IMG/VR virus record: IMGVR_UViG_3300045988_113752
Location: 1 to 24,654 of that record
Length of the DNA: 24,654 nucleotides
Strand: one strand, 5' to 3'
Origin: a virus
Lineage: Duplodnaviria > Heunggongvirae > Uroviricota > Caudoviricetes
Below the pieces are notes generated by a model. The model was not told the origin of the DNA, did not search any database, and worked only from the letters and a program-made list of their open reading frames with translations. Position numbers and translations under genes: made by a program. Every line of letters begins with the position of its first letter. Position 1 is the stretch's first letter. Below are positions 12,370-24,654 of the stretch, in pieces.

Positions 12370-12933
12370 TTAGCATGATTCAGGGGAAACCCCAATATTA
12401 AATATGAGTGTCTCCCCTGAATCAGCATAATAATGTAATATTATTGACTTACGTTGTTTTCTTGCTTCGTAGAATAAACGCTCTTGCGGCGATAATTTGT
12501 GAAAACTGCCGGATGCACAATATATGTTTTTTAACTTTTCGCGGGTTTCTTTTATTGTATCTTCTGATATGTATTTTAGGTATTTATCCGTATAGATGTT
12601 GCTACTATAAGAAATTAATGTTTTGCTGTTGTTGTGATGTATTGTATTTTTATCGTTGAAGTCTGTATTTTTATTTACTGTCATTAGGTTTTTAATGATT
12701 ACATGTAATACAATAGTCTCCCCATCATCAATTCCATATTTGATGTCATAGTCAGTATATTTATTTGTTATACCGCTTCCTGATAGCGGCACTATGTACT
12801 CTGAGAAAAATGAGTTTGCCGCGTGACTATCAAGAGCAATAGCAGTTTGTTTGTGGTAAAAATAAAACAATATTGAGAGAGTCAAAATAATAGCGACGCC
12901 TAATGCAACCTTTAATATAGATATGGTTTTCAA
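12370..12933 (-). CDS. AT-rich accessory gene: signal-anchored or secreted protein of unknown function (candidate superinfection-exclusion-type moron)
   Basis: The track ORF (12370..12981) starts at TTG with no RBS. An internal TTG at 12933 has a perfect AAGGAG 7 nt upstream and gives N-terminus MKTISILKVALGVAIILTLSILFYFY, a signal peptide or anchor. The region is strongly AT-rich compared with its flanks. Confidence 0.45.
   Translation of the reverse strand: MKTISILKVALGVAIILTLSILFYFYHKQTAIALDSHAANSFFSEYIVPLSGSGITNKYTDYDIKYGIDDGETIVLHVIIKNLMTVNKNTDFNDKNTIHHNNSKTLISYSSNIYTDKYLKYISEDTIKETREKLKNIYCASGSFHKLSPQERLFYEARKQRKSIILHYYADSGETLIFNIGVSPESC
12377..12423. other. 11-bp inverted repeat (gattcagggga ... 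tcccctgaatc) with 25-nt loop, at the junction of convergent genes
   Basis: Perfect inverted repeat read directly from the sequence. It overlaps the 3' end of the minus-strand ORF. Confidence 0.3.
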
Positions 12934-13023: not shown

Positions 13024-13455
13024 CTATTCAGGTATTTCAATTCCAAAACCATCTGCATCCCATGAGTTTTCACAGATGATGTAACCTAGTTCATTGAGCT
13101 TATTAAATGTTTTTTCAAAGATGATCTGGTAATCATTATCTGCAAGTGATTCCAGTTCAAGGTCATTAAGGTTTATATAAAAACTTGTATGTCCAAGTGT
13201 TATTTTCTTATTAATTTCATTAAAGGTTCTTTTGAAAATAATATTTGATATTTCATGTCGTGCATTGTTTGCAATGATTTTTGCTTCATAAGCAGAAATT
13301 ACGTCATCTTCATGAATATCTTTCAGAAAACTGGTGTCAAGACGTTGTACTATTTCAGCGTTCATTGATCGCTTATTGGCTTTTGCAGAAATTTCTATTT
13401 TTTCTTTTACTTCGACGGGAAGTCTGATCCTTAGTTGTGGATCTTCTCTGCTCAT
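13024..13455 (-). CDS. Mnt-like ribbon-helix-helix repressor with ~100-aa C-terminal extension
   Basis: N-terminus MSREDPQLRIRLPVEVKEKIEISAKANKRSMNAEIVQRL resembles P22 Mnt/Arc RHH domains as I recall them. Transcribed divergently from the Arc-like gene. Start chosen at the ATG giving MSRED; the track ORF starts 10 codons upstream. Confidence 0.55.
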   Translation of the reverse strand: MSREDPQLRIRLPVEVKEKIEISAKANKRSMNAEIVQRLDTSFLKDIHEDDVISAYEAKIIANNARHEISNIIFKRTFNEINKKITLGHTSFYINLNDLELESLADNDYQIIFEKTFNKLNELGYIICENSWDADGFGIEIPE

Positions 13456-13575
13456 GTTCTTCACCAAATATTGAGTTACTTGCAATGATTGAAGTATGCC
13501 TCACCGTGTGCTTGACATCAATGACGCACGGTGTGACAATTATTTTGCCCCACGGTGGGGCTAAGGAGATATGAA
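13456..13575. promoter_or_regulatory. Divergent promoter/operator region between the Mnt-like and Arc-like genes
   Basis: TTGACA at 13512-13517 with a weak -10 (gacaat) 17 nt downstream on the plus strand. Inverted half-sites CACCGTG (13502-13508) and CACGGTG (13527-13533) flank the -35; a third CACGGTG lies at 13551-13557. Confidence 0.45.
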
Positions 13576-13743
13576 ATGCAAAAAGCAAAAGAGATGTGTC
13601 AACGACGAGTTCGTTTTCCGGACGATGTGAAGTTAGCTATTGAAAGAAATGGCGAAAAAGAATGCCGAAAGTTCAATACAGAGATTATCTATCAGCTGAG
13701 GAAAGTGTATGGACTCACTGGTGAGAAGAATAGCGTGGCATAA
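13576..13743 (+). CDS. Arc-like ribbon-helix-helix repressor
   Basis: 55 aa from ATG 13576, with taaggag 8 nt upstream. RVRFPDDVKLAIERNGEKECRKFNTEIIYQLRKVY resembles P22 Arc. Directly upstream of the antirepressor gene. Confidence 0.6.
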   Translation: MQKAKEMCQRRVRFPDDVKLAIERNGEKECRKFNTEIIYQLRKVYGLTGEKNSVA

Positions 13744-13814
13744 AACAGCGAAGCCCCACGGTGGCCAGACCGTCAGGGCTTCAGTATCGTAAAACTACGT
13801 ATAGGAATTAACGA
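13742..13814 (-). ncRNA. Candidate sar-like antisense RNA covering the antirepressor RBS/start
   Basis: Minus-strand promoter TTGATA-N17-TATACT (plus coordinates 13849-13844 and 13826-13821) fires antisense across the ant RBS (13802-13805) and ATG (13816). A strong hairpin (13750-13782) is followed on the minus strand by GCUGUUUUA. Predicted length is ~70 nt. Confidence 0.4.
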
Positions 13815-13815
13815 C

Positions 13816-14754
13816 ATGACGAGTATAGCAACAGCAGTATCTACTATCAACGTGCCATTCCACGGCGCAGAGCTTTATGTTGTCAATCACAACGGCGAAC
13901 CGTATACCCCAATGAAACCTATCGTTGAGGGAATGGGGCTAGACTGGAAATCTCAACATAAGAAGATTTCTCAACGCTTCTCGAAGGGTATGGTGGAAAT
14001 CACCATACCTTCTGCCGGTGGGGTGCAAGCCATGATTTGTATGGCTTTACGAAAATTGGCAGCTTGGTTGAACAGCATCAGCCCTAACAAAGTCCGCCCT
14101 GAAATCCGCGACAAGGTAATCCAGTATCAGGAAGAGTGTGACGATGTGCTCTACGAGTACTGGACTAAAGGCCATGTGGTTAACCCACGCAAAGCTAAAA
14201 AGGCGTTGCCGGGTAAAATAACAACTGAACAGCAGGAAGCCATTAAACAACTCGTCATGAGTCGCGGTCAGTCTCTGCCAAAAGAAAAACAGGCTAAGGC
14301 GATGATCACCATGTGGTCGTCACTGAAATCTCATTTTGGCTGTTCGTACAAAGAAATTGGTGAAGATCAATTTGCCGAAGCGTTGTCTCTTGTTGCTCGG
14401 GTTCCGCTTGAAGGGGAGTATCTCCCTGCTGGATCTGCATCAGAGAATGATGAAGTGGCAGTCAAGATGTTAGATGCGCTTCGTGAGGCAATTAAAACAC
14501 AGACAAAATGTTATGGTTATCCACTGAAGCCCGGCTACCGTAGCCTGATTCATTCGCCGTCTGGTGTTCTCGGCCTGACGGAGAACTCACTGCTGATGAA
14601 TCTGCTGAACCAGTTACAGGAAGACGGGCACGATGTATCGGGCGCGGCGGCGGAGCTGACCACCATGTTCTGCTACATCGTCGGTGTGAGCAAATGCCTG
14701 CGTGATATCCAGACGCACGCGGAATACATCAACGACAAGGCAGGGTTCTTCTGA
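13816..14754 (+). CDS. Antirepressor-like protein (Ant-type N-terminal region plus shared C-terminal domain)
   Basis: 312 aa immediately downstream of the Arc-like gene, in the immI-like arrangement. The C-terminal ~78 aa are identical to the C-terminus of the Bro-N protein at 16006..16698. Confidence 0.55.
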   Translation: MTSIATAVSTINVPFHGAELYVVNHNGEPYTPMKPIVEGMGLDWKSQHKKISQRFSKGMVEITIPSAGGVQAMICMALRKLAAWLNSISPNKVRPEIRDKVIQYQEECDDVLYEYWTKGHVVNPRKAKKALPGKITTEQQEAIKQLVMSRGQSLPKEKQAKAMITMWSSLKSHFGCSYKEIGEDQFAEALSLVARVPLEGEYLPAGSASENDEVAVKMLDALREAIKTQTKCYGYPLKPGYRSLIHSPSGVLGLTENSLLMNLLNQLQEDGHDVSGAAAELTTMFCYIVGVSKCLRDIQTHAEYINDKAGFF

Positions 14755-14774
14755 CAGAACGGCGGCACAGGGAC
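14521..14774. repeat. Inverted repeat, left copy (~253 bp, ~97% identical to 15988..16240 in reverse complement)
   Basis: Aligned by hand: about 6 substitutions, all synonymous in the coding part, plus a small indel just after the stop codon. It encodes the shared antirepressor C-terminal domain. Confidence 0.8.
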
Positions 14775-15082: not shown

Positions 15083-15631
15083 TTACTTTTCTTCAGGTTT
15101 GTTGTCTTCAGATTTCTTCTTGATGCTTGGTTTTTGTCTAAGAACGAAAATACCAGCCACTGCAACAACTGTACCGATCACTGTGCCAGCTAGAACTTCA
15201 TGACCTGTTAAACCTAATAATGTTGCACAAGCTACTGTAAAAATAGTTGCACTCAGGCCAAACCACTGCCCACGTTTATCTCTATTAATAGCCCCGTCAA
15301 GTGCCTTTTCCTCCATTTTCTGGCGGTGAGCAAACTCCTTCTCCGTCAGCTGGAAGATGCGTTCGGGGGCATCAGGTAAAATATCCTGATACCCGCGAAG
15401 CAGATAGGGGGGAGGAAGCGGACCCTGAAACGCATGGTGAGCGACAACTATCTCCTGAATTTCAGGGCGATCAAGAACTCTTGTGAAGGCATCTGGGTGT
15501 TGAATGATCTCGTTACTTAGCCCTTCCTCAACTTCCTCGAACTCAGTTTCTTCGTTATCACTTGGTTGCCCAATAGATTTTTGCATATTTGTCGAAGGAC
15601 ATTCCTTTAGCTTCTGGTTTTCCTCTTGCAT
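15083..15631 (-). CDS. Membrane protein with acidic N-terminus and two C-terminal TM helices (DUF2335-like by memory)
   Basis: 182-aa ORF with aggga upstream. Contains a PPPYLLRGYQDILPDAPERIF motif and two hydrophobic helices near the C-terminus. Its 5' end overlaps the upstream gene by 74 nt in another frame. Confidence 0.45.
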   Translation of the reverse strand: MQEENQKLKECPSTNMQKSIGQPSDNEETEFEEVEEGLSNEIIQHPDAFTRVLDRPEIQEIVVAHHAFQGPLPPPYLLRGYQDILPDAPERIFQLTEKEFAHRQKMEEKALDGAINRDKRGQWFGLSATIFTVACATLLGLTGHEVLAGTVIGTVVAVAGIFVLRQKPSIKKKSEDNKPEEK

Positions 15632-15987: not shown

Positions 15988-16240
15988 TCCCTGTGCCGCC
16001 GCCCGTCAGAAGAACCCTGCTTTGTCGTTGATGTACTCCGCGTGCGTCTGGATATCACGCAGGCATTTGCTCACACCGACGATGTAGCAGAACATGGTGG
16101 TCAACTCCGCCGCCGCGCCCGATACGTCGTGCCCGTCTTCCTGTAACTGGTTTAGCAGATTCATCAGCAGTGAGTTCTCCGTCAGGCCGAGAACACCAGA
16201 CGGCGAATGAATCAGGCTGCGGTAGCCGGGCTTCAGTGGG
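15988..16240. repeat. Inverted repeat, right copy (partner of 14521..14774)
   Basis: Reverse complement matches the left copy at ~97%. It encodes the C-terminal 78 aa of the Bro-N antirepressor. Confidence 0.8.
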
Positions 16241-16698
16241 GCGCTGTAGGTTTTGTTCTCTACCTTCATTGCCTGCATCACTGCTGATGCTGTGGCGTTG
16301 GCTACCTGGTCGGCAACCATCTTTATGCGTTCTTCCTGCGGGAGCGAGTTTTTAATGTAACTTCCGGTGCGGCGGATCTGAGGAAGAACCTCACCTGTAA
16401 CCCATTCAAGAAATCTGAATGCTCTCGTTCCCTCAGTCATTGCCTCTTTGCAACGCAGAATAAGGATGTAGAGACCTGATTCTGAAACGATGGATAGTTC
16501 TTGTATTCCACCAGGGGTCTGTATTGAATACAGCCCCTTTTTGTTCCAGCCTTTTTTATCAAGTTTTCTCGCTTGTGTAACATCAATATTCAAAGCATTG
16601 CACACATCTTTGGTGACAAACCAAGGTTCTCCGTCAATCATGAACATACGGATCTGGCAGGATGACTCAAAGGAAAAGATGGAAGGTTTGGTATTCAT
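16006..16698 (-). CDS. Bro-N domain antirepressor with shared C-terminal domain
   Basis: Start chosen at ATG 16698 (AAGGTGA 5 nt upstream), giving MNTKPSIFSFESSCQIRMFMIDGEPWFVTKDVCNALNI, a Bro-N/antirepressor N-terminal signature. The C-terminus is identical to the Ant at 13816..14754. Confidence 0.65.
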   Translation of the reverse strand: MNTKPSIFSFESSCQIRMFMIDGEPWFVTKDVCNALNIDVTQARKLDKKGWNKKGLYSIQTPGGIQELSIVSESGLYILILRCKEAMTEGTRAFRFLEWVTGEVLPQIRRTGSYIKNSLPQEERIKMVADQVANATASAVMQAMKVENKTYSAPLKPGYRSLIHSPSGVLGLTENSLLMNLLNQLQEDGHDVSGAAAELTTMFCYIVGVSKCLRDIQTHAEYINDKAGFF

Positions 16699-17011
16699 AG
16701 CGATCACCTTTGTAGTTAGGTTAATCACCACCGCTGAGACCAATCAGATGGTGGTGAACTGTGCAGAGTTGGTCTTACCGGCTACAAAGGAACCCGGCGC
16801 ACCTTTCGGTGCCCCCACACAGCCCACCATAGAATAGGTGCGCTTTACACATAAAAAAACCGCTTATGCGGCATATGTGCCTCTGTAGTAATCCGGGAGA
16901 CCAATCCCGGCACTGGATTTTGCCAGTGCCCGATTACTATGGCACAAGAGGAGTGCAATGTAAATTTACCGAAAAGGTAAATATAAGCACTCCTATTGGT
17001 AATTTCAAAAC

Positions 17012-17269
17012 TTATCTGGTTTGTTTTCGTAATTGTTCGGCACAATAGTCGAGATGTGTTTGCAGATCCTGCATAGACATCTGTGAGCTGGTGACGTAGT
17101 TAATCAGTGCAGTCAGTTCGGCAAGTGGGCCATCGACATTAAATCCATCCTTATCGAGATCCCGGAGTAATTTCATCAAGTGCGATCCCTCCACCAGTGA
17201 CCTGACGCCTCCCGGCGTGTGAATCCTTTCGGTAAATCCCTCTTCCAGTGGATAGTGATACTGCTGCAT
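17012..17269 (-). CDS. Small protein homologous to the antirepressor C-terminal domain, LexA-box controlled
   Basis: 85 aa from the second ATG (17269), which has GGAG 9 nt upstream; the first ATG (17284) has no RBS. YPLEEGFTERIHTPGGVRSLVEGSHLMKLLRDLDKDGFNVDGPLAELTAL aligns with YPLKPGYRSLIHSPSGVLGLTENSLLMNLLNQLQEDGHDVSGAAAELTTM of both antirepressors. Confidence 0.6.
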   Translation of the reverse strand: MQQYHYPLEEGFTERIHTPGGVRSLVEGSHLMKLLRDLDKDGFNVDGPLAELTALINYVTSSQMSMQDLQTHLDYCAEQLRKQTR

Positions 17270-17289
17270 CTTAATCTTCTCCATGCAAT

Positions 17290-17309
17290 AACTGTATATT
17301 TATACAGTA
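17290..17309. promoter_or_regulatory. LexA (SOS) box aACTGTATATTTATACAGTAg
   Basis: Perfect CTGT-N8-ACAG palindrome with all-AT spacer, near-identical to the E. coli LexA consensus TACTGTATATATATACAGTA. It lies 21 nt upstream of the start codon of the minus-strand small gene. Confidence 0.7.
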
Positions 17310-21632: not shown

Positions 21633-22111
21633 TCTGGGCATTCGCAAAAGCATACTGGAAACAGTTGGTTATCATGGCGATGCTTGCTGTTCTGGTCATA
21701 TCAGGAGTTGTCGCCTGGAATGCACACGGCAGTCGCCAGTACGATGCCGGGTATGCTCAGGCGGAAGAAGACCGCAAAGCCGAAGAAGACAAAGTTCGTC
21801 AGCACTACGAACAGGAGAAATCGATCAATGAACGTGAAGCGCAGCAGAGGATCGACCAGGCGCGCAATGATGCTCTTGATGCTGCCGCTCGCGCTGGCCG
21901 GTTGCAGCAACAGCTCGTTGCCATCCGTGAGCAGCTCAGGCACTATAACGCCATTGTCGGCGCTGGGACGTCAGCCGCAGACACCGGAGTTTTGCTTGCC
22001 GACGTGCTCAGTAAATCTCTCGAGAGAAACAGACAACTGGCAGAGTATGCTGACCGGGCAGCCGAAGCCGGAAGAGTCTGTGAAAAACAGTACGACACCC
22101 TGACCAGATAG
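21629..22111 (+). CDS. Rz-like i-spanin
   Basis: Start overlaps the endolysin stop (ATGA). N-terminal TM helix followed by a charged, coiled-coil-like periplasmic domain. Confidence 0.7.
21828..22103 (+). CDS. Rz1-like o-spanin lipoprotein, embedded in Rz in the +1 frame
   Basis: [26 protein letters not shown] has a basic n-region, hydrophobic core and LAGC lipobox. GGAG lies 10 nt upstream. The mature part is Pro/Ser-rich. Confidence 0.6.
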   Translation: MNVKRSRGSTRRAMMLLMLPLALAGCSNSSLPSVSSSGTITPLSALGRQPQTPEFCLPTCSVNLSRETDNWQSMLTGQPKPEESVKNSTTP

Positions 22112-22218
22112 CATGGCATTTTTCATGGTACTGATTTCCGGTGACGGTATATAAAACGGTACGAGGAAAATTGAGCTTTGGAAAAATGTTATCACTCAAT
22201 TGGTTATGGTGTCCGTAA

Positions 22219-22236
22219 ATAATTGAGTGGGAATGA
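22219..22236 (+). other. guaA: Remnant 3' end of guaA (ATA ATT GAG TGG GAA TGA = IIEWE-stop): probable prophage att junction
   Basis: E. coli GuaA ends ...PPATIEWE as I recall it. Here only the last codons are present and the frame is closed by TAA two codons upstream, so the upstream DNA is not guaA. A host-like terminator follows. Confidence 0.45.
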
Positions 22237-22262
22237 TTTTGATCCCTGCACTATGAATGAAC

Positions 22263-22292
22263 AAAACCCTCTGTTACTACAGAGGGTTTTTT
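22263..22292. terminator. Bidirectional intrinsic terminator (AAAA-CCCTCTG-ttacta-CAGAGGG-TTTTTT)
   Basis: Perfect 7-bp stem flanked by an A-run and a T-run, between convergent genes. Confidence 0.7.
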
Positions 22293-22330
22293 ATCTTCAA
22301 GAATTATAGGCTTGAAGTTACTTACATCGA

Positions 22331-22870
22331 TTAATTAAACCAGCTGTCCGATTTGTTCTCTTCTGCTTTGCCCACGCTTTTCATCAGATCGCGACCGCCT
22401 TCAGTCATATTTCTGTTGGCGTCAGCTTCAGATTGCACCACATCGGTTTGCGCAGCTTTGTGCTTCAGTTCCTGATCGATAAATTCGTTTTCTCGCTTAA
22501 CGCGGGCTTCTTCTTTTGCCAGCGCCAGTTTTTGTTTCTGAATCTCTAAGCTGTGTAGCTCATCTTCATAACTTTGATCGCGTTTTTTGTCCGCAGAGGC
22601 TTCGGCGTCCAGTTTATCCTGACGAGCTTTCTTATTTGCTGCTGCCGTTGCCGCTCTTTTGTTAGCGGCGGCCTGGGCATTTGCGCGACGTTGCTTCTCT
22701 TGCTGGATTTCCCTGTTGCGCTCCGCGACCCATTCGTCATGCTGCCTTTGCTCTTCATTTTTACCTTGCTGTTCAGCTTCTGCTACAGCAGAGAGTTGAT
22801 CCTGCAATGATGAGGCGATAGCCGGATAGCTTAAGGAGGCCAAGATGGCGCAAAGAAAAACTTTCTTCAT
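22331..22870 (-). CDS. yfgI: Periplasmic coiled-coil protein, YfgI-like (host gene)
   Basis: 179 aa with signal peptide MKKVFLCAILASLSYPAIA, then a highly charged Gln/Ala/Lys/Glu-rich sequence. Length and neighbourhood match E. coli yfgI as recalled. Confidence 0.5.
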   Translation of the reverse strand: MKKVFLCAILASLSYPAIASSLQDQLSAVAEAEQQGKNEEQRQHDEWVAERNREIQQEKQRRANAQAAANKRAATAAANKKARQDKLDAEASADKKRDQSYEDELHSLEIQKQKLALAKEEARVKRENEFIDQELKHKAAQTDVVQSEADANRNMTEGGRDLMKSVGKAEENKSDSWFN

Positions 22871-22885
22871 GACTCCTCCTGATTA

Positions 22886-23404
22886 TTAGCTCTTTTCAGG
22901 ACATTTAGTATTTGGCTGAATACGCGTTTCGTTATACGTTGTGGTAATAACAACGGCTAAACCTGTCGTAAACTGGCACTCTTTACCCACCTGGGTAGAG
23001 GTATACACTTTGGTGCCTTCCTTATATGTTAAAGAAACACCTTCCACTAAGGTTTTATCATTCACCATAGAACCCGCTGCCGCGCCTACAGCTCCGCCGC
23101 CAACTGCCCCTGCCGTCGTTCCGGAATTGCTGCCAGAACCGACGTTGTGGCCGATAACACCGCCAGCGACTGCGCCAATAAGCGCGCCGAAGGCTTGTGC
23201 GTTCCGTTTATTTTGGGAGTTGTCTACGGCAACTTTTGCGGGAAGAATGGAAATAATATTAACGGTTTTAGTTTCTTGTTTGGTATTCAGTTGATCGGTT
23301 TGATAAACATCGGCGGCATGATCGTCAGCATTTGACTGGCATCCTGCCAGAGTGAATGACGCTAACATTGCCACAGGCAGAAGACATTTTTTAAATTTCA
23401 TCAC
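22886..23404 (-). CDS. yfgH: Outer-membrane lipoprotein with glycine-zipper region, YfgH-like (host gene)
   Basis: 172 aa with LAGC lipobox and a Gly/Ala-rich segment (GALIGAVAGGVIGHNVG...GAVGGGAVGAAAG), similar in architecture to SlyB/Pcp-type lipoproteins. Confidence 0.5.
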   Translation of the reverse strand: MMKFKKCLLPVAMLASFTLAGCQSNADDHAADVYQTDQLNTKQETKTVNIISILPAKVAVDNSQNKRNAQAFGALIGAVAGGVIGHNVGSGSNSGTTAGAVGGGAVGAAAGSMVNDKTLVEGVSLTYKEGTKVYTSTQVGKECQFTTGLAVVITTTYNETRIQPNTKCPEKS

Positions 23405-23714
23405 TATTCCTTGTTATACACATTACGAAAAATAAGACATTTAAGATCATCAAAAGAGGAAAGTAAATGTATTGCGTATAAAGGGATAGATTAAATTTAT
23501 TAAAATTCACGCAGGGAATAATTTATAAAAATATATCATTACAACATATATATTAATTTTATATTTATTTCGCAGCCAAACAGGATAAACATCAGTCAGG
23601 ACAAAGACGTAAAATTTAAGATGAAAGAATATCTGCCGCTTTGATAATTCCAAAGAGCAAAAGCATCCGACAGCGAAGTGCCGTTAGGTTCTGTGAAAGT
23701 GGAGAAGGTAACCG

Positions 23715-23906
23715 CTAACGTTGTACCGGTGATTCGACGGAGAGTGTGGATTGCTGAGCTTCTTTTTTGCTCTGATGGTGCTGCCAGGCACCGACGGACG
23801 AGTAGATAAAACGGCCAAAGAAGAAGATAAAGCTGATGAGCAGTACGATACGGGTCATGCGACTGTTAAATCGGTGTCGTTTTCGCATACTGGTTGCCTG
23901 ACTCAC
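23715..23906 (-). CDS. yfgG: Small single-TM membrane protein, YfgG-like (host gene)
   Basis: 63 aa with a basic N-terminus and one hydrophobic helix (IVLLISFIFFFGRFIY). Size and position match yfgG. Confidence 0.45.
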   Translation of the reverse strand: MSQATSMRKRHRFNSRMTRIVLLISFIFFFGRFIYSSVGAWQHHQSKKEAQQSTLSVESPVQR

Positions 23907-24257
23907 AAAAGGTTCCTTGAAGTATGTCCCACGCTGTGGACGGTACTTACATTAAGGCACAACAGGACAAAATGGTCAATTCTTCGTTATGTAAAAAAGC
24001 GTCAGTGGATACATATTTTAATGTTATGGAAGTTAATTTAATTATTTACAATGATGATGTAATAATGATGAATTAACATGATAAACGTAATAATTCATTA
24101 ATCAGGGTTATTTTGTTTGATATATATCAATTGGAACTTTCATATGACACTTAGAATCAATGCTCTCTATAGTGATGAATAATCATCATTCGAAGTCAGG
24201 TGGGATGCCTGTCTGAATACACCTCCTTCAGGATGTGGGGGATTCTGCTGAGCATCT

Positions 24258-24654
24258 ATGAAACTGAATGCAACTTATATAAAAATACGTGATAAATGGT
24301 GGGGGCTTCCGCTGTTCCTGCCTTCTTTAATCTTGCCCATTTTCGCCCACATTAATACTTTCGCGCATATTTCTTCCGGTGAGGTTTTTCTCTTTTATCT
24401 GCCTTTGGCACTGATGATCAGCATGATGATGTTTTTCAGCTGGGCGGCATTGCCAGGGATCACCTTAGGGATTTTTGTCCGCAAATATGCAGAGCTGGGT
24501 TTTTACGAAACGCTCTCATTAACGGCTAATTTTATTATCATTATCATTCTCTGTTGGGGCGGTTACAGGGTCTTTACTGGATTTGCCCCTATATTTCCAG
24601 ACATCTGTTATCACTTAACCCATTACAAGCCCGCTGCCGCAGATATTCCCGTGG
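24258..24654 (+). CDS. pdeF: N-terminal fragment of a multi-TM membrane protein, probably the sensor domain of PdeF/YfgF (continues past window end)
   Basis: Open frame from ATG 24258 to the window end (132 codons) with several hydrophobic segments. Not in the ORF track because it has no stop. Assignment rests on synteny recalled from E. coli. Confidence 0.4.
   Translation, partial: MKLNATYIKIRDKWWGLPLFLPSLILPIFAHINTFAHISSGEVFLFYLPLALMISMMMFFSWAALPGITLGIFVRKYAELGFYETLSLTANFIIIIILCWGGYRVFTGFAPIFPDICYHLTHYKPAAADIPV

Follow-up and report, generated by a model that had tools for sequence, protein, structure and literature searches.

The immI region of phage P22 is a textbook circuit and the source of the model proteins Arc and Mnt. 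In the GenBank record X01916, mnt is divergent from an arc-ant operon, the promoter Psar lies inside ant, and the sar RNA is antisense to the arc-ant spacer. One operator with the core CCACGGTGG begins 6 nt past the -10 hexamer of Pant, another operator lies in the Pant spacer, the antirepressor carries a P22_AR_N domain, and the whole group is located between the ejection genes and the tailspike gene. Here we describe a locus that resembles P22 immI in all of these respects and is found in a stretch of viral DNA of 24,654 nt (positions 1 to 24,654 of IMG/VR record IMGVR_UViG_3300045988_113752; the whole stretch is referred to as the window). We consider it likely that the locus is a complete P22-type immI cassette, or 'ant moron', of a subfamily with an enlarged Mnt protein ('long Mnt'), that it resides in an epsilon15/phiV10-like Escherichia coli prophage, and that it works by analogy with P22, including the oligomerisation and the antirepressor target proposed below. 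The locus is well defined and readily testable, and it is unsurprising in principle.

The ant moron of P22-like phages is inserted upstream of the tailspike gene, is transcribed on its own, varies greatly and often includes immI genes; the name was given to this location by Casjens and colleagues, and rapid gene flux and decay are characteristic of it (PMC2629481). The cassette described here is likewise a variable insertion, separately transcribed according to its predicted promoters, between ejection/internal-protein genes and the tailspike gene, and its absence from the related podovirus EC.W1-9 supports its status as a moron. However, P22 immI belongs to a P22-like phage and the ant moron has been described for that group, whereas the present cassette occurs in an epsilon15-like podovirus (a Uetakevirus) and elsewhere in siphovirus-type prophages of other genera. 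A different relationship links the locus to the repressor-antirepressor (Rep-Ant) complex of PDB entry 5d50, which we take to be that of the epsilon15-like Salmonella phage SPC32H, with a LexA-controlled ant. The SPC32H repressor/antirepressor pair was reportedly described by Kim and Ryu in 2013 and by Kim et al. in 2016. The principle of a LexA-controlled Ant is summarised, citing Kim & Ryu 2013, in PMC7380047. The 86-amino-acid (aa) Ant chain of 5d50 is homologous to the C-terminal 77 residues of the immI Ant (7e-14), where the domain is fused behind P22_AR_N, and the window contains, in addition, a nearly identical free-standing Ant that has a LexA box.

The genes of the cassette and the parts of long Mnt are as follows.

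13024..13455, minus strand: mnt-like gene (long Mnt, annotated 'Arc family DNA-binding protein'), 143 aa plus stop, from the open reading frame list, Pfam, PDB and PHROG.
13318..13455, minus strand: ribbon-helix-helix (RHH) DNA-binding domain, long Mnt residues 1-46, from the homologue alignment; its N-terminal arm MSREDPQLRIRLP is near-invariant.
13195..13293, minus strand: long helix, residues 55-87, a helix of the AlphaFold2 model that BLASTP aligns with residues 57-83 of P22 Mnt, its C-terminal (tetramerisation) helix.
13027..13194, minus strand: added alpha/beta domain formed by residues 88-143, without counterpart in P22 Mnt, 33% GC.
13576-13743, plus strand: arc-like gene, 55 aa, first in the ant operon, with a good ribosome-binding site, AAGGAG, at 13563-13568.
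13816..14754, plus strand: ant, a 312-aa antirepressor, chimeric by its domain matches, with P22_AR_N (6e-45) at residues 12-121 (13849-14178).

A sequence-only reading of the window had placed a Mnt-like and an Arc-like protein of the RHH type divergently around a 120-bp region, with an antirepressor gene next to them, and the genes lie as it described; the intergenic region spans 13456-13575, exactly 120 bp. Its comparison with the P22 immI layout is strengthened by a full-length sar RNA with a Psar-like promoter, an Omnt-like palindrome at the P22 offset and the P22 moron position.

The open frame of mnt extends over 13024..13485 on the minus strand and encodes 153 aa if a TTG is taken as the start codon. 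Translation almost certainly begins instead at the ATG at 13455, giving 143 aa, because MSREDPQ opens every homologue and the DNA upstream is unconserved; the PGAP call in the E. coli UTAK-1 prophage is the same 432-bp coding sequence. Residues 2-46 match Pfam Arc (PF03869, E 1e-14), and the best relative in PDB is P22 Mnt itself (1mnt, 3.5e-7). P22 Mnt is 83 aa long in X01916, as the sequence-only reading had stated, and BLASTP aligns all 83 residues to residues 1-86 of long Mnt with 32% identity. At the operator-reading positions (P22 Mnt numbering without the initiator Met), R2 and R10 are kept, H6 is replaced by Q, and N8 by R. Additionally, long Mnt matches phrog_1388 over 143/143 positions, and 262 homologous clusters across Enterobacterales align with it at full length with 58-69% identity. 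A Pf prophage protein of Pseudomonas shares 40% identity over 87% of the query. A literature search found no paper on the long-Mnt variant.

The RHH region also matches PHROG 795 and 2685, both labelled 'partition protein ATPase', with the phrog_795 match spanning residues 1-84 of long Mnt. RHH folds are frequent among ParG proteins and antitoxins, and the two proteins could on these grounds form a ParG-like partition pair or an antitoxin-type pair. We regard this as highly improbable. The bona fide P22 mnt bears the same label in RefSeq, hence the label is an annotation artefact; no ATPase or toxin partner gene was found among the window's open reading frames or with Pfam or PADLOC; and the sar RNA, the antirepressor, the Omnt-like operator and the synteny with P22 all fit immI. 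The 'partition protein ATPase' label on P22-type mnt genes is a propagated mis-annotation in RefSeq and PHROGs (phrog_795, phrog_2685; for example NC_031946 and NC_011802).

The most distinctive property of the cassette is the C-terminal part of long Mnt. P22 Mnt has 83 aa, whereas the protein here has 143. Since the helix at residues 55-87 aligns with the C-terminal helix of P22 Mnt, the true addition, as judged from the alignment, is residues 87/88-143, an alpha/beta domain of about 57 aa. The sequence-only reading had spoken of an extra AT-rich domain of about 100 aa; the AT-richness holds (30% GC for the C-terminal part of mnt, against 37% for the RHH part and 46% for the window), but the figure of about 100 applies only to what lies beyond the RHH domain. 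An AlphaFold2 model of long Mnt, built from a 34-sequence alignment, has a mean pLDDT of 82 and shows the RHH domain, the helix 55-87 and a compact alpha/beta unit (strand 91-95, helix 106-123, strand 136-140; pLDDT ~82-94). Thus the structure prediction that had been proposed for the extension returned a confident fold.

The extension is conserved to its last residues in homologues from many genera, and the ratio of nonsynonymous to synonymous substitution rates (dN/dS) over this part, 0.17-0.22, indicates purifying selection. It had also been considered that the extension might be a translation artefact of a mis-called stop. Low GC alone speaks for this, and we find the idea scarcely credible: length and sequence are conserved to the end, dN/dS is about 0.2, the AlphaFold2 fold is confident, and PGAP calls the same coding sequence. 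By sequence and model alike, the extension is a real, conserved and confidently folded domain. When residues 50-143 alone were compared with 1.84 billion representative proteins, this part was found essentially only behind an RHH domain, in proteins of 138-148 aa, or in fragments. Some proteins with a C-terminal part of the long-Mnt type carry different reading heads. A 758-aa match to residues 50-143 was rejected as a repeat artefact.

What the extension does is most likely connected with oligomerisation and cooperativity. P22 Mnt requires its C-terminus, a C-terminal coiled coil, to form tetramers. We infer a similar role for the extension because the domain co-occurs with an array of three operators, the outer two of which are about five helical turns apart, and because the C-terminus of P22 Mnt is needed for tetramers. 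An alternative, raised alongside oligomerisation in the sequence-only reading as a sensory input to the switch, is that the cassette is as described here, but that the added domain is a sensory or partner-binding one, responding to a small molecule, to Ant or to a phage or host protein, so that ant is de-repressed on a signal. The compact alpha/beta fold is distinct from the Mnt coiled coil and strongly conserved, and regulatory domains at the C-terminus of RHH repressors have precedents, as in NikR and in co-repressor control of the MetJ type. The combination of an RHH domain and a C-terminal accessory domain, in about 140 aa, is likewise found in NikR-like proteins and in the long Arc/Mnt-domain proteins of Pf prophages, the latter uncharacterised (PMC7549136). 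The conserved residues of the extension are mostly hydrophobic, with no ligand-type motif among them in the homologue alignment, and structure comparison revealed no resemblance to NikR-type domains. We hold a sensory function to be rather improbable, though not negligible. Equally improbable in our judgement is the extended proposal that long Mnt is a signal- or partner-responsive repressor by virtue of its alpha/beta domain, with Ant released on a specific cue and the three antirepressors of the window integrating three inputs on one master repressor.

The Arc-like protein agrees with P22 Arc in position and size (about 53 aa and first gene of the ant operon in P22, 55 aa here), and its homology is weak. 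It shares 33% identity with P22 Arc over 40 aa (pairwise BLASTP, E 4e-5) and matches the PHROG 'Arc-like repressor' at 3e-5. When a profile of 16 Arc-like orthologues is set against the Mnt-like family, the RHH domains align in register (hhalign, 82% probability, E 1e-5). Comparison with Arc/Mnt family profiles, which the sequence-only reading had suggested, gave Pfam Arc at 1e-14 for the Mnt-like protein; the Arc-like protein has the PHROG match and none in Pfam. The gene is called 'Arc-like repressor' in the RefSeq record of Escherichia phage TL-2011b and 'hypothetical' by PGAP.

For the control region, 18 loci from about a dozen genera were fetched, and a footprint alignment was made of 15 loci (Escherichia, Enterobacter, Kluyvera, Yersinia, Citrobacter, Xenorhabdus, Pantoea, Proteus, Morganella, Raoultella, Mixta and others). 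The predicted elements in the window are these.

13512..13540, plus strand: Pant-like promoter, TTGACA, 17 nt, (TG)TGACAAT, 10/12 in the promoter scan, with an extended -10.
13493..13521, minus strand: predicted Pmnt, with -35 TTGATG (13521..13516), a 17-nt spacer holding operator O1, and -10 CATACT (13498..13493), read from the sequence.
13498..13512, no strand: predicted operator O1, GCCTCACCGTGTGCT, family consensus GCCCCACNGTGGGGT, adjoining the Pant -35 and within the Pmnt spacer.
13523..13537, no strand: predicted operator O2, GACGCACGGTGTGAC, within the Pant spacer, positioned like Oarc of P22.
13547..13561, no strand: predicted operator O3, the perfect palindrome GCCCCAC-G-GTGGGGC (GCCCCACGGTGGGGC), 6 nt past the Pant -10.

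The Pant hexamers are invariant or nearly so in the 15 loci. The columns of the Pmnt -10 are invariant across the alignment, with CATAAT as family consensus, and the equivalent promoter of the Raoultella locus, TTGATG-17-CATAAT, was picked up by the scan. Both sequences are presumably used as promoters. In P22, Pant and Pmnt overlap fully (both at 302-335 of the record), whereas the candidates here stand back-to-back and share only their -35 regions.

The three operators follow one 15-bp motif, GnCnCAC-N-GTGnGnC. There are three copies of it in the 24.6 kb, all of them in the control region, and none of 100 shuffles gave three; this layout is not due to chance. The distances from centre to centre are 25 bp for O1-O2, 24-27 bp for O2-O3 and 49-52 bp for O1-O3, the last corresponding to about five helical turns. 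In the P22 record, Omnt is AGGTCCACGGTGGACCT (AGGTCCAC-G-GTGGACCT) and likewise starts 6 nt past the Pant -10, and its core is identical to that of O3. The operators differ from those of P22 in that Oarc and Omnt are unrelated in sequence, while a single motif serves for all three here. In P22, the stretch from the -35 to the -10 of Pant is occupied by Oarc, a 21-bp site that contains TAGA boxes; the spacer here holds the palindrome O2 instead.

The reading arms of both proteins are near-invariant, PQLRIRLP in the Mnt-like and YQRK(V/I)RFP in the Arc-like protein, with Q, R/K and R at alternating positions in both, and all three operators have one common core. From these sequences, both repressors probably recognise overlapping sets of sites. 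By position relative to P22, O3 with O1 would be assigned to Mnt, and O2 with O1 to the Arc-like protein. A search for LexA control of immI found no CTGT-N8-ACAG at 13400-13830 with one mismatch allowed. In particular, the LexA box of the 5d50 (SPC32H-like) type in front of ant is missing at 13456-13575, and the control proposed here is instead by Mnt, Arc and sar.

The 75-bp core comprising O1, both -35 hexamers, O2, the -10 and O3 has a mean pairwise identity of 84% in the 15 loci, compared with 37-39% in the flanking leaders and 75% in the RHH-coding DNA. The order of long Mnt, a divergent 55-aa Arc-like gene and an antirepressor recurs, with N-terminal antirepressor modules that vary among loci (Bro-N/P22_AR_C, P22_AR_N, ORF6N and others). 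The prophage backgrounds differ as well, with siphovirus tail genes, for example, in Enterobacter. A distinct version of the P22 circuit with long Mnt is thus common in prophages of Enterobacterales, in at least 12 genera; Yersinia pestis, Enterobacter, Salmonella, Klebsiella and Proteus are among its carriers. What is new relative to P22 is the accessory domain on Mnt and the unusually conserved control region with its three predicted operators and back-to-back candidate promoters.

An antisense RNA of the P22 type, with its own predicted promoter, was found between the arc-like gene and ant.

13747..13814, minus strand: sar antisense RNA, Rfam RF00262, 44.8 bits (gathering score 43), model positions 1-68 of 68.
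13822..13850, minus strand: Psar-like promoter, TTGATA-17-TATACT with TG, from the promoter scan, inside the 5' end of ant.

The sar RNA folds with -23.1 kcal/mol (z -2.6) and has both expected hairpins, and the Psar-like promoter stops 7 nt short of its 5' end. It covers the arc-ant spacer in antisense, together with the ribosome-binding site of ant (AGGA, 13804-13807), and its boundary lies one base ahead of the ATG at 13816, which favours that ATG as the start of ant over the GTG called by PGAP. The Enterobacter cassette also has a sar RNA (RF00262, 59.4 bits). A fourth, partial copy of the operator motif, GCCCCACGGTGG, lies at 13753-13764 in the sar terminator stem and arc-ant spacer and equals the left two-thirds of O3. 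It was rejected as an operator, being missing from the cassettes of other genera, and may be a coincidence or a lineage-specific site.

The antirepressor gene had been described as antirepressor-like. This agrees with its P22_AR_N domain and its 39% identity to P22 Ant over 217 aa, but the protein is not a straight orthologue of P22 Ant. The likeness is limited to the first ~212 residues; P22 Ant, which inactivates the c2 repressor, ends in P22_AR_C, whereas no P22_AR_C was found in this protein with Pfam. Residues 231-307 (14506-14736) instead match the chain 5d50_E, 'Anti-repressor protein', at 7e-14. By its sequence, Ant is thus a chimera of a P22-type N-terminal domain and a 5d50-type repressor-binding C-terminal domain. 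In the collinear UTAK-1 prophage, the repressor matches the chain 5d50_A, 'Repressor', at 3.5e-42. Because the Ant C-terminus and the UTAK-1 repressor match two chains of one complex, the immI Ant most likely targets the repressor of its own prophage. The locus is an example of modular evolution, in which a P22-type cassette and N-terminal Ant module have been joined to an effector domain suited to the repressor of another lineage.

Based on these comparisons, we propose the following working model. In a lysogen, long Mnt made from Pmnt would bind the 15-bp palindromes and keep the arc-ant operon off. O3, in the position of Omnt, would cover approximately +1 to +15 of Pant, and O1, about 49 bp away, would lie roughly on the same face of the DNA. 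The residues 88-143, together with the helix 55-87, would build a higher-order oligomer, allowing RHH dimers to fill several operators cooperatively. On entry of the genome into a Mnt-free cell, Pant would fire and produce a burst of Arc-like protein and Ant. The Arc-like protein would then act on O2 and O1 in the promoter spacers to close Pant and probably Pmnt as well, and sar RNA made from Psar would pair with the ant ribosome-binding site and block translation. The C-terminal domain of Ant would inactivate the main repressor of the prophage, the homologue of the 5d50 'Repressor'.

The segment 12300-15083 of the window is ~97% identical to Escherichia phage TL-2011b, which belongs to the genus Uetakevirus of epsilon15/phiV10-like podoviruses (PMC11522302), and the window is collinear with the E. 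coli UTAK-1 prophage (97-99.7% identity), which is integrated next to guaA. The whole module is present in 35 of 5426 complete E. coli genomes. TL-2011b is the only isolated phage found with this mnt, and there the gene has a 1-bp insertion (13066-13160 of TL-2011b, corresponding to window 13425-13431; GATCCCTTAG vs GATCCTTAG) that shifts the frame after ~8 codons. The 113-aa 'hypothetical protein' in its RefSeq record results from this frameshift, which could reflect either a genuine mutation or a sequencing error.

Several observations weigh against the interpretation as a working P22-type switch. The profile of the Arc-like protein reaches PDB Arc only at E ~0.1, its AlphaFold2 model from database homologues is of low confidence (pLDDT 55), and the sequence signals behind its assignment to the RHH proteins are weak but consistent. 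The Pmnt of the window scores 8/12, below the threshold of the promoter scan, and O1 deviates from the family consensus (GTGTGCT vs GTGGGGT). Covariation in the fetched loci assigns no site to either protein, since the reading heads are invariant while O3 varies. Structure comparison of the extension gave no informative fold match that would support a role for it, and the main repressor gene lies outside the window. Finally, the frameshift in TL-2011b may mean that the switch is dispensable or decaying in some lineages.

Carried further, this last point would make the cassette a decaying, non-functional remnant, with induction proceeding via a separate, LexA-controlled small Ant. The frameshifted mnt of TL-2011b and the degenerate O1 of the window agree with this, as do the presence of a dedicated, predicted SOS-controlled Ant at 17012-17284 and the gene flux and decay to which ant morons are prone (PMC2629481). 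In the window, however, the three open reading frames, sar, Psar, Pant, O2 and O3 are all intact. Among the best 15 of the 35 carrier E. coli genomes the module is at least 99.6% identical, with mnt annotated at full length in the one inspected, and purifying selection acts across the family. We accordingly judge decay to be unlikely and retain the interpretation of the locus as a complete immI cassette. Its recognition also improves annotation, since the Arc-like gene is 'hypothetical' in PGAP, the TL-2011b mnt is 'hypothetical', and P22-type mnt genes carry the 'partition protein ATPase' label.

In the window's gene order, the cassette lies between ejection/internal-core genes and the tailspike gene, which matches the ejection-to-tailspike order of a P22-like phage. 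The neighbours had been called a T7-like module. One of them is indeed annotated 'T7 gp14 family', but the genes are the internal-core and ejection set of an epsilon15/phiV10-like podovirus prophage. Downstream of mnt, in the position of P22 sieA, there is a further gene.

12370..12933, minus strand: gene for a 187-aa single-pass membrane protein, AT-rich (32% GC).

Its product has one N-terminal transmembrane helix and belongs to phrog_8033, of unknown function. Homology with SieA was considered and rejected, as there is no similarity to SieA. Neither NCBIfam nor Pfam gave a match, and a weak TIR-like match in PADLOC (E 0.005) was disregarded. The genes downstream of mnt vary in other genera, and this one, neighbouring cargo outside the conserved cassette, may serve in lysogenic conversion or exclusion. 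On the other side of the cassette, the minus-strand gene at 15083-15631 is called 'YafO family toxin' in RefSeq and PGAP, whereas Pfam finds only DUF2335 (1.6e-15) in what is a predicted membrane protein, and NCBIfam gives no match. The right prophage end and host DNA occupy ~22111-24654, with homologues of yfgI, yfgH and yfgG at 22331-23404 and beyond; host DNA (yfgI, yfgH) begins at ~22.3 kb. These homologues indicate that the window crosses from prophage into host DNA at the end opposite guaA.

Two further antirepressor genes with their control elements lie to the right of the cassette.

16006-16743, minus strand: Bro-N antirepressor, 245 aa, its last 76 residues identical to those of the immI Ant.
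16747-16834, minus strand: C4 antisense RNA, RF01695, 78.6 bits, directly upstream of the Bro-N gene.
16853-16929, minus strand: isrK, RF01394, 74.7 bits.
16890-16942, minus strand: c4 a1/b1 target elements, upstream of the Bro-N gene.
17012-17284, minus strand: stand-alone Ant, 90 aa, matching 5d50_E at 1.7e-47.
17292-17307, minus strand: perfect LexA box, CTGTATATTTATACAG, in front of the 90-aa ant.

By its sequence elements, the region 16006-16942 on the minus strand represents a second antirepressor module with RNA control of the P1 immI type. The 90-aa Ant is presumably the SOS-inducible Ant of the prophage; a second perfect LexA-box match, at 1348-1363, is in the head-gene region a long way upstream. 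One repressor-binding domain is common to all three antirepressors of the window, and a single prophage thus has the same effector domain under three different predicted kinds of control. The immI ant and the Bro-N ant are convergent, and their 3' ends form a 270-bp inverted repeat (92%), at 14486-14755 and 16005-16274. It brackets 1249 bp with three leftward genes and is a possible substrate for recombinational inversion.

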